From NCBI RefSeq assembly GCF_003018115.1, contig NZ_CP027457.1: a stretch of 64,000 bases of DNA, one strand, 5' to 3'. This DNA comes from Escherichia coli. Lineage in GTDB: Bacteria > Pseudomonadota > Gammaproteobacteria > Enterobacterales > Enterobacteriaceae. Made by a program: the position numbers. Below are positions 15,001-18,000 of this stretch, piece after piece (within the stretch, counting starts at the first letter, position 1; every line of letters begins with the position of its first letter).

Positions 15001-18000
15001 TTCTCCACCTGTCGGCTTCACCACAACAGGTGTGCTCACATCACCTTCTGCGACAATCGCCTGAATAAGTGCTGCGCCATCATCCGTATACGAAGAAAAC
15101 GGCCCACCGTATGGTTGCCATCCTTCACGAATTTTTTGCGCAAGTGCATCAGCAAGGTCTGACGGCGATGCCGCCCTGACCACATCGTAATGTTTAAATG
15201 TCATGAATCCTCCCGGCCGGGATAGTGTACTGAATCAGATAAAGAGCGGGCTGAAGTCCGGAAGTTACAGGACAATGGCAGAAGGGAGACTTACAGCCCG
15301 CAATTCGAAAAAGGCCGCGCAGTTGCGCAGAGTGATTACCATGGGGTATTATTCGCCAGCTGAAATATTACTTCACGTTTTGTTGTTTATTCCTTGCCGC
15401 CCGCGTCTCCCAGCGCGGGCTTTTTTGTCCATAAGAAAGCCCCTCCGGAGAGGGGCTGAAGCCGCATTTCTGTATCACCATGAACATGGTGCCGGGTGCC
15501 TCCCGGTGAGTTCAGTCCGGTGTCCCTGAACCCGCGTATCTCGTTCCAGGTTGTCGTCAGAGATGACACCTTATACACCAGTCGCCCCTCCGCACAGGGG
15601 GATTCACCATGCGAAATTTTTTTAACAAATGCTCAGTCTGACAGGCAACTGTCAACTGACTGAATTGTGACACAGATTACAGTTGTTACCCACATACCAC
15701 GAATCAGGTTATGCCTCAGTCATTATTAAACTGCACTTCAGCAAATCCGGAGCCTGATTCACAGGTACTGGATTTGATTGTGACAGTCATTCCTGTCAGC
15801 TGAGCACTTTGCAGTAACGGTTGCAGATTCCAGCGACTGGTCCAGTATTCTTTCCCGGCCACTTTTACTGTGAATGTATCATTCTCATTATACTTGGAAA
15901 ACTCAATTTTACCTTTAGCGCAATCCGCCGCCATTGCATTAACAGAAACTAATGCAAATAAAACCGCCATAAACATCTTCTTCATACTTAACTCCTTTAT
16001 TCACCCGTTGTATATAAAGACTGTGATTTTCTGTTCAGAAACGCTGCTGCTGTATTACTTTCCCATAATGTATTGTTTATTTTTATAACGGGCCTGTCGC
16101 CAGTTATCTGACATTCTGGTTGACTCTCTTCATTCACGGCGCGAACAGAACGCGCCCCCTGATGATGGCAATTCAGTATAACGGCCACAGTACCCAGTAT
16201 CGCTGATATATTATTAAAGGATATTCTCCCCACTCTGACACCATCCTCTCCCCGATACTCCGGAAGCACATTGCTGATTCGCCCCCAGTTCAGAGTGAGG
16301 TCCACGTCTCCCGGCGTCATCGTATACACAGGAGCAGTTTCAGACAGTGCCTGACGAAATTCTCTCTGTATCTGCCTGAAGCGTAAGGCTTCTGCTGTGA
16401 CAGTGACAAAACGCAGAACTGCTCTGGATGCATCTCTGGTCATTGTATTACCACTGAACTCCATTAACGCCAGATATGATGAAACCAGTGAGTGACGACT
16501 GATTTGCATTCCGGAACGTTCCAGCGCTGCGACACGTTGCAGAGTGGTATAACTGCTGTCCGTTGTCATGGAAACCGTTGTCACACCGGGCACTGATATA
16601 TGTGTAAAATCTGAAAAACGGTAGAAAGTATTTGTTGCCGTATTAACGAACCCGGCCACATATAAATTATTTTGCTCAATAATCAGACGAAGATGGTCAA
16701 AACGCGCCTGATAGACATCAAGCCCTCGTATATCCACAGCAAAATAACTGCCCGGCGGGGTGTGGTTAATAACAGACACCGATGTGGTCCCCTGAGATAT
16801 ATGTTCAAGAGGGGTCGATATCTCTGTCCGTATACTATTTAACGAAGAGACATAACTTTGTTGAGTCGAAAAGTCTATCGTAAATTCCCGGGAATAGGAT
16901 ACCGAAGAAAAACCCAGTAACAGGCACAGTACCCATTTAAATAATATACACTTCATATACAGGTGTTCCTTTTGGCTGAAGTAATCAACACCAGACCCGG
17001 CGCAGATATAAAAAAGGCCCGCAAAAGCGAGCCTGGTAAATAAATATGGCGCGTTGTACTGGATTCGAACCAGTGACCGATTGCTTAGAAGGCAATTGCT
17101 CTGTCCGGCTGAGCTAACAACGCTGAATAACGATAATGGACCGCCATCGAGGACTCGAACCCCGCGCAGCCAGCTTCGAAGGCTGGCGCTCTGTCCCGAT
17201 GAGCTAATGGCGGTATGTGATATGGTGGCCCTTGCTGGATTTGAACCAGCGACCTGGCGATTATGAGTCGCTCGCTCTCACCACTGAGCTAAAGGGCCGG
17301 GAGCCGGATAATAACGGTCCGTAATTAATTCCGCAATAAAAAACCCGCTCGGCGGCGGGTTGTAGAAATCCTTCTAACGTCAGGCATAAAACGCCCATCG
17401 TTAGGGTAAATTTACCACAGATTCGGGAAAAATCAACAAGGCTATCGGGTTACTCTCTTCAGTTGTTGCTCTGCCCACGCCTCTTCAATATCAAACTGCA
17501 CCACCAGCGTATCGTAAAAACGTTTAACTGTTTTTTTCCATGTATCAAGAGATATGGCATCGGTTACATTACATATGGCATTAAATGCCTCCGTTGAAGG
17601 TAATCTTTCATAGCCACGCCCACCACAACGCTGACAGTTTCTGAAAACCGGCACACCCTGTTTTTCCGACTCTTCACGATGAATGGCAACACCGCGCCCA
17701 CGACAATCTTTACAGGCAGTGGATACCTCCCCCTTCCCCCCACACTCCGGACAGGTAACGTTTACCACTTCCCTGACTTTTTTCCATTCCTCCCAGTAAG
17801 ACGGATACACGCCTTTTGTGCACTTTGCCCATACTGGCGGCTTACCATCCGGATACTGGATCTTGTTTGTAAAAACCTCGCTTTCAATAAATTTTTTTCC
17901 ATGGCAGCAGGGGCACTGTTTTTTGCTCGCCGCGCTCCGGGCATAATCTTCAAACGCATATGAAGCCATAATGCGCATCACTGCCGGTTTTATTTCTGCC

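Follow-up and report, generated by a model that had tools for sequence, protein, structure and literature searches.

Two facing terminator hairpins downstream of stx2B, very probably the ends of a convergent small RNA pair, in a lambdoid Stx2 prophage of Escherichia coli

The stretch of DNA analysed here, referred to below as the window, comprises 64,000 nucleotides of Escherichia coli (RefSeq assembly GCF_003018115.1, contig NZ_CP027457.1) and covers the late region of a lambdoid Stx2 prophage, the genes of which lie on the minus strand. The subject of this work is a pair of hairpins situated between the stxAB toxin genes and a downstream sialate esterase gene, which very probably serve as opposed intrinsic terminators for two convergent prophage small RNAs (sRNAs). 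The features on which the argument relies are the following.

18263-17442, minus strand: Q antiterminator gene (Pfam Antiterm)
17298-17047, minus strand: three tRNA genes, Met(cat)/Arg/Arg
16956-15997, minus strand: stxA
15985-15716, minus strand: stx2B, the upstream 'moron' gene (Pfam SLT_beta; annotated stx2B in the 99.7%-identical phage LC567818.1)
15427-15641, minus strand (that of stxAB): STnc100-family sRNA of the EcOnc27 / sRNA103 / EcOnc05 type (Rfam cmscan)
15428-15457, minus strand: terminator of the STnc100-type sRNA (consensus scan, folding, Rfam RF02076 alignment)
15399-15426, plus strand: intrinsic terminator of the antisense-to-stx sRNA (consensus scan, folding)
15358-15426, plus strand: predicted short form of the EcOnc08/42-type sRNA, about 68 nt, 5' end inferred
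15323-15352, plus strand: candidate sigma-70 promoter of the short form, TTGCGC (15323-15328), 18-nt spacer, TATTAT (15347-15352), read from the sequence
15262-15347, plus strand: equivalent of the EcOnc21/EcOnc42 Hfq peak (Tree 2014 Table S2, probe list, alignment)
15204-13258, minus strand: nanS-p-type sialate O-acetylesterase gene, 648 aa (DUF1737 + SASA + DUF6645)

The gap between stxB and nanS-p measures 511 nt and contains both hairpins, which are found 259-318 nt downstream of the stxB stop codon. The esterase gene, labelled yjhS or nanS in matching phages, is a conserved phage open reading frame (ORF) downstream of the sRNA pair, and the holin region comes after it in the late-region order. 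The closest phage match is the Stx2-converting phage Stx2_14040 (99.7%). Among 5426 complete E. coli genomes, 995 carry the 151-nt cassette around the hairpins (15320-15470); the matching records number 997, and all but two of them (995) are at least 90% identical at their best place. In E. coli O145 RM9872 the cassette is 100% identical. A 108-aa plus-strand ORF (15203-15529) spanning both hairpins was treated as spurious, as Pfam gives no match to it and two terminators lie within it.

A previous reading, made from the sequence alone, had pointed to paired hairpins at 15397-15458 downstream of stxB; both were recovered by scanning and folding, and the B-subunit context is correct (SLT_beta). 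Both hairpins show the defining features of an intrinsic terminator, in which a G+C-rich stem (5 bp or longer) closes a short loop and leads directly into a 3' U tract, and both are predicted to release transcripts in vivo. On the plus strand, the stem at 15399-15406 pairs with 15413-15420 (GCCCGCGT-CTCCCA-GCGCGGGC) and is followed by T6 at 15421-15426; in the consensus scan this hairpin (15399-15420, GCCCGCGTCTCCCAGCGCGGGC) has 8 pairs, 7 of them G-C, a loop of 6 and the tail TTTTTTGTCC. On the minus strand, the hairpin at 15457-15438 (AGCCCCTC-TCCG-GAGGGGCT) is followed by a broken U tract, TTCTTAT; the scan gives it as AGCCCCTCTCCGGAGGGGCT, with 8 pairs (6 G-C), a loop of 4 and the tail TTCTTATGGA, and its 8-nt tail UUUCUUAU contains 6 U. 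The plus and minus hairpins rank 1st and 3rd among the terminator-like sites of the 7-kb region, which has 14 such sites versus 7.6 +/- 2.8 in shuffles. Their folding energies are -16.9 kcal/mol for the plus hairpin (z = -3.9, equalled by 0 of 200 shuffles) and -17.3 kcal/mol for the minus hairpin (z = -2.7, equalled by 3 of 200). Moreover, the plus stem sequence occurs only once in the 64-kb window, even when 3 mismatches are tolerated, 0 chance matches being expected.

The two hairpins are separated by an 18-nt spacer, TTTTTTGTCCATAAGAAA, which contains both U tracts. Neither is followed by a T run on its opposite strand, where the plus hairpin is succeeded by GGCAAGGAAT and the minus hairpin by GAAGCCGC; therefore they are two separate one-way terminators facing each other, and a single bidirectional terminator, that is, one hairpin with U tracts on both strands, was rejected. 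A third terminator-like hairpin is found on the minus strand at 15315-15330 (CTGCGC-AACT-GCGCGG, then CCTTTTTCG, with the tail extending to about 15306), about 110 nt upstream of the nanS-p start codon, and it is nearly invariant across the phages 933W and BP-4795, the prophages Sp4 and Sp15 of E. coli O157:H7 Sakai, and the window. Its minus-strand 5' arm (15323-15328) is the reverse complement of the plus-strand candidate -35 element TTGCGC, and this hairpin could be either a second barrier before the late genes or the result of promoter-driven conservation.

On the stxAB strand, the region matches the Rfam family RF02076 (STnc100) over the full model (positions 1-206 of 206), with 160.1 bits against a gathering score of 47 (E = 6e-37). 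The minus hairpin is the last helix of this model (positions about 176-199), followed by the U-rich tail, and what had been described as a weaker sense-strand terminator is thus the terminal helix of an RNA of the STnc100/EcOnc27/sRNA103 type. Its 5' end lies 75 nt after the stxB stop codon, a distance also reported in Stx2 phages (PMC12370729). In O157:H7 strains the RNAs of this type have been named EcOnc27 (Sakai) and sRNA103 (EDL933). EcOnc27 binds Hfq and gives Northern bands of about 235/247 nt, of which the 247-nt one is lost in an hfq mutant; EcOnc05 appears at about 222 nt, homologues are also present in Hfq-CRAC data, and overexpression of EcOnc27/sRNA103 raises the fimZ and espA transcript levels. 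Hfq-bound expression of the RNA at the present locus would be carried over from these homologues. The family comprises an sRNA of Salmonella and E. coli prophages, to which PasD of enteropathogenic E. coli (EPEC) is related; both PasD and STnc100 have been described upstream of a sialate esterase gene, the placement also observed here. The STnc100 RNA of 933W scores 208 bits versus 160 for that of the window, the lower value reflecting a 10-nt insertion together with a 3' part that differs.

On the opposite strand, the RNA ending at the plus hairpin is assigned, by sequence comparison, to the EcOnc08/21/42 type and not to AsxR. Positions 15300-15461 are 93.9% identical to Sakai Sp4 (163 nt), and 15100-15670 are 85% identical to the Stx1 phage Sp15 (577 nt). 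From these prophages, Hfq-CRAC peaks were reported as EcOnc08 and EcOnc21 (Sp4) and EcOnc42 (Sp15), for all of which a single Northern probe revealed a band of about 271 nt (Tree et al. 2014, PMC4104026); a later review (PMC7873438) lists EcOnc42, with the synonyms EcOnc21 and EcOnc08, as confirmed by Northern and CRAC, and its targets as unknown. Sp4 and Sp15 contain the published probe target exactly, and at 15319-15353 the window retains 29 of its 35 positions. The coordinate frame for the Sakai peaks was checked with four published probe sequences; the Table S2 coordinates of Tree et al. agree with those of NC_002695.2 at Sp4, but at Sp5 and Sp15 they run 142 nt below them, so that mapping these peaks onto NC_002695.2 requires a 142-nt correction at the latter two. 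The EcOnc08 peak (Sakai 1179938-1180010, minus strand) corresponds to window 15353-15426, spanning from just past the candidate -10 hexamer to T6, with the 3' end of the terminator at the peak's 3' edge, while the EcOnc21 peak corresponds to 15262-15347. The earlier view of the plus hairpin as a terminator for antisense transcription thus holds, since by this homology it ends an RNA antisense to stx; a transcript and its Hfq binding at this locus would be carried over from Sakai.

The Sakai copies (EcOnc08/21 in Sp4, and EcOnc42 in Sp15, 3' of stx1B) are near-invariant with the window from the nanS-p start codon to both hairpins, and the RNA occupies the same strand and the same position relative to STnc100 and the esterase gene. 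The upstream moron differs, being stx2 in the window, stx1 in Sp15 and tRNAs only in Sp4, and the Sp15 copy has a C-to-A mismatch in the terminator stem, which is intact in the window. Neither the AsxR (RF02703) nor the AgvB (RF02702) model gives a match in 15200-15720 at E <= 10, hence the exclusion of AsxR; in positive controls these models scored 88 and 41 bits on 933W and 57 bits on BP-4795, a match being defined by about 42 nt of conserved 3' sequence (GUAUCUCAUGC..UUGCCCGAACCCAYUCGGGC). Other identities and interactions were discarded. Weak Rfam matches over the hairpins (OmrA-B, 22.6 bits; anti-hemB, 19.2 bits; sRNA71; Leu_leader) were taken as chance, because they are far under their gathering scores and only generic terminator shapes align. 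PasA/PasC were set aside, as a 2026 preprint puts them between the esterase and holin genes; according to the same preprint, the STnc100 relative PasD is found on the STnc100 side, upstream of the esterase. Pairing of the U/G-rich stretch GUUUUGUUGUUU with the paralogous anti-sRNAs was dropped as well: for its duplexes with the CACAACA of AgvB, with AsxR and with EcOnc03, 24-64% of shuffles did as well or better.

The arrangement as a whole has been described before. In Sakai Sp5, convergent sRNAs EcOnc02 and EcOnc27 lie 3' of stx2B (Tree et al. 2014, PMC4104026), EcOnc02 being AsxR, 282 bp 3' of stx2AB and antisense to it, and in at least eight Sakai prophages the stretch from the late promoter to the lysis genes houses dyads of Hfq-binding sRNAs; these dyads bookend stx, and the reason for the arrangement has been called unclear (review PMC7873438, 2021). 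The AsxR/EcOnc27 dyad (Sp5, 933W; Tree et al. 2014, Mol Cell 55:199, PMC4104026) occupies the same locus, from stx2B to a nanS-p-type ORF, and shares with the window the convergent layout, an STnc100-type sense RNA, abutting terminators and the TTGCGC -35 element; in 933W and Sp5 the Rfam STnc100 and AsxR matches lie end to end on opposite strands, with 3' ends 1-2 nt apart. However, the body and terminator of the antisense RNA of the window belong to another sequence class, and the stem of the STnc100 terminator is AGCCCCTC in the window versus GGCCTCTC in the dyad. The positional hallmarks of AsxR/AgvB are all present here: the plus-strand RNA is convergent with an STnc100-type RNA, lies between a moron and a conserved phage ORF, and is antisense to the late transcript. 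The AgvB/EcOnc06 dyad (Sakai Sp10, Sp17) has the same convergent architecture, from PR' to the lysis genes; AgvB contains the GcvB-target mimic CACAACA, a motif which the window RNA lacks, and the latter has no significant complementarity to AgvB, AsxR or EcOnc03. Furthermore, members of the AsxR/AgvB family are sponges, RNAs of 51-60 nt that pair through their 5' end with a core-genome sRNA, versus about 68 nt for the predicted short form in the window.

Conservation of the pairing was surveyed in IMG/VR, where an exact 24-nt pattern of the STnc100 core retrieved 120 loci with 119 scorable sites. A convergent partner with its own terminator directly opposite was present at 93 of these: the EcOnc08/42 type at 60, the AsxR/AgvB/EcOnc03 type at 21 and other bodies behind the same TATTAT promoter at 12, the remaining 26 having no recognisable partner. 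The class of the window's plus-strand RNA, with at least three body variants, is commoner than the AsxR/AgvB class in this sample. Where stx2B lies upstream (n=10, a small sample), 5 sites have the EcOnc08/42 type and 3 the AsxR type, and at 99 of the 119 sites the STnc100-type RNA has no stx gene nearby. Every type of partner terminator was seen with either of the two main STnc100 terminator variants, and therefore the two modules recombine. Two same-strand copies of the STnc100 core were seen at eight loci (L015, L023, L042, L043, L045, L053, L068 and L070), spaced by 275 or 484 nt in most and by about 2.5 kb in L045, which suggests that some prophages carry tandem STnc100-type genes. In three Stx2c-type phages (L002, which is Stx2_5044, L046 and L112), an STnc100 RNA with the AGCCCCTC terminator and a clean TTTTTAT tail has no convergent partner, the partner slot being taken by about 350 bp of unrelated sequence.

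Among 19 distinct TATTAT-type sequences, the -35 element TTGCGC is invariant (19/19) and the -10 element is TATTAT in 18 and GATTAT in one; divergence begins directly after the -10 hexamer, and the motif UUCCUUGCC or UUCUUGCC occurs ahead of the plus terminator. The plus terminator helix is 89.5% paired across these variants, a value that drops to 83% in shuffles and to 28-59% on sliding the 3' partners by 1-3 columns, and two-sided (compensatory) changes are found at 2 pairs, e.g. G-C to A-U; three variants only seem broken, owing to a one-column shift of the stem, and fold well individually. The STnc100 terminators of other phages (GGCCTCTC..GGGGCC, GGCTCCTC..GGAGCC, ATCCCCTC..GAGGGGAT) all pair, with compensatory variants such as GGCCCCTC/GGGGCC versus GGCTCCTC/GGAGCC and AGCCCC/GGGGCT versus ATCCCC/GGGGAT.

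The explanation that best accommodates these observations, and which we hold with high confidence, is that the hairpins are the facing intrinsic terminators of a convergent prophage sRNA pair located between the stxAB moron and nanS-p, which is the first late gene. On the stx strand, an STnc100-family RNA of the EcOnc27/sRNA103 type (about 210-245 nt) would end at the AGCCCCTC hairpin; on the other, an EcOnc08/21/42-type RNA would run towards stxB and end at the GCCCGCG hairpin with its T6. Each hairpin would thereby provide one sRNA with its stem-plus-U-tail 3' end, a requirement of Hfq-dependent sRNAs. In the lysogen, the minus terminator would stop transcription from the stx/tRNA region ahead of nanS-p, the holin and the lysis genes, and after induction Q-modified polymerase from PR' would read through it, as lambdoid late-operon biology suggests. 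The plus terminator would in turn halt antisense polymerase 290 nt short of stxB, shielding the toxin genes. The suggestion of the sequence-only reading that the region may yield an sRNA is borne out on both strands, by the STnc100-type RNA in the stx2B 3' region and by the plus-strand EcOnc08/21/42-type RNA, and its mention of prophage sRNAs near stx agrees with the published dyad (Tree et al. 2014, PMC4104026; review PMC7873438). It is also refined, in that each hairpin closes an sRNA gene of its own at the 3' end, the two genes being convergent and forming this dyad.

Several points weigh against this picture. The U tract of the minus hairpin is interrupted (UUUCUUAU), which makes the efficiency of minus-strand termination uncertain. 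That both RNAs exist and bind Hfq would follow from the literature on near-identical loci, those of E. coli O157:H7 Sakai and not of the present strain. No RefSeq annotation lies beneath the cassette 15320-15470 in any of the 30 records listed, and no convincing promoter for the STnc100-type RNA was found between stxB and 15641. Finally, the band of about 271 nt on the Sakai Northern comes from a probe directed at 15319-15353, upstream of where the short form would start, which makes the short plus-strand RNA a prediction.

The role of the plus-strand RNA is accordingly discussed for a short form, a long form or both, any of which may apply. A tentative reading, possible although falling short of probable, is that this slot holds a second class of prophage sRNA cassette: an Hfq-dependent RNA of about 68 nt with its own TTGCGC-18-TATTAT promoter (start about 15358), sharing the -35 element of AsxR/AgvB and having a distinct body and terminator, which would act in trans on host targets and would have escaped the Northern, since its probe is directed at the promoter. 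The predicted short form is backed by a conserved promoter followed by a variable body, by the edges of the EcOnc08 peak, by a typical sRNA fold (about 40 nt of U-rich, mostly unpaired 5' part, then the terminator) and by analogy with the AsxR promoter, AsxR/AgvB-type cassettes having the same TTGCGC and, at the equivalent distance, TAAAAT, 6 nt before the start of the Rfam AsxR model. The candidate promoter was missed by the default promoter scan because its -35 element matches at only 3/6 positions.

It is also conceivable, if somewhat doubtful, that the plus-strand RNA is mainly a long cis-antisense transcript of about 271 nt, running from about 15155, within the initial codons of nanS-p, to the T6 terminator and controlling the esterase or late genes through perfect pairing over the nanS-p ribosome-binding site and start codon (15204); it agrees with the sRNA-pair reading on the terminator and differs only on the role of the RNA. 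The Northern size, obtained with a probe upstream of the short-form start, speaks for it, and so does the second Hfq peak (EcOnc21/42): the region 15262-15347 would belong to such a longer RNA reaching back to about 15155. Counting 271 nt back from 15426 likewise leads to about 15155, where the homology of the window, Sp4, Sp15, 933W and BP-4795 starts abruptly, the coding sequence upstream being divergent. Nevertheless, neither the scan nor reading of the plus strand near 15110-15150 revealed a recognisable sigma-70 promoter, the 272-nt sequence folds no better than shuffles (z = -0.84), and the Northern size is approximate and could stem from any of the three Sakai copies. A motif considered as a long-form promoter, ATGTCA-17-GATAGT (15198-15226), was discarded, as the RNA would be about 194 nt long, a misfit with the Northern.

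As regards the minus strand, the hairpin might be mainly the terminator of the stx operon and the STnc100-type RNA a stable fragment of the stx mRNA 3' untranslated region (UTR) with no function of its own, which appears unlikely. The lack of a good promoter between stxB and 15641 and a start only 75 nt past the stop codon favour it: a perfect -35 element (TTGACA, 15655-15650) has no usable -10, and TGTAAT at 15681-15676 has no usable -35 and is not kept in BP-4795, so that processing from the stx mRNA is possible, and the RNA may be cut from this 3' UTR or have its own promoter. Yet RNAs of this type also occur with no stx gene upstream, after tRNA-Arg in Sakai Sp4 and at the 99 IMG/VR sites already mentioned; they bind Hfq, are destabilised in its absence and, when overexpressed, shift fimZ and espA, and the covariance-model match includes internal helices.

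That the plus hairpin belongs to AsxR, the anti-FnrS sponge of Stx2 phages, is extremely improbable: position, orientation and distance to stxB do agree (282 bp for AsxR, while here T6 ends 290 nt from the stop codon) and, in the alignment with 933W, the hairpin takes the position of the AsxR terminator column for column, but the RF02703/RF02702 models are unmatched and the aligned sequence is unrelated from the -10 element through the terminator stem, only the -35 region and the U tract being common to both, so that this identity was ruled out by the covariance-model and alignment tests. Chance inverted repeats or recombination scars with no transcriptional role, as might be suggested by the mosaic nature of the region and the module boundaries close to the hairpins, can be practically dismissed in view of the fold z-scores (-3.9 and -2.7), of a hairpin-spacer-hairpin layout kept across many phages with different stem sequences and preserved pairing, and of the published Hfq-CRAC peaks that end at the hairpins.

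Other RNA features were noted in the window. At the 3' end of the esterase gene, a weak Esr41-like Rfam match (13183-13268, plus strand; 22.9 bits versus a gathering score of 102) coincides in position with EcOnc52, an Hfq peak of Sakai Sp4 (1181998-1182075, minus strand); the neighbouring esterase-holin gap is the PasA/PasC slot of the 2026 preprint and contains facing terminator-like hairpins at 12940-12956 (minus) and 12988-13004 (plus). Between the Q gene and the tRNAs, right after the former, the minus-strand region 17335-17423, with only a chance-level Trp_leader match, includes a strong terminator (17361-17342) which is probably tR', the position of a StxS-type short RNA from PR'. Another strong minus-strand terminator (17015-17034, AGGCTCGC..GCGGGCCT then T6) lies between tRNA-Arg(tct) and stxA and is overlapped by a partial, weak STnc100 match (19 bits). 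Elsewhere in the window, DicF (28148-28199, plus strand, 62 bits) and naRNA4/CssrE (50736-50804, minus strand, 60.8 bits) exceed their Rfam gathering scores.

The hairpin pair is therefore already known, as the ends of a published sRNA pair, and is not a new element; the commonest partner RNA at this locus is one with no known target, Rfam family or RefSeq annotation and with ambiguous transcript boundaries. The particularity is a local one: this Stx2 prophage has an EcOnc08/42-type RNA in place of AsxR. As the antisense RNA is of a different class, the FnrS-sponge function of AsxR is not to be assumed for it and, since this Stx2 prophage lacks AsxR, the link that has been proposed from Stx2 phage carriage to haem use, by way of AsxR-FnrS-ChuS, does not hold for Stx2 phages in general.

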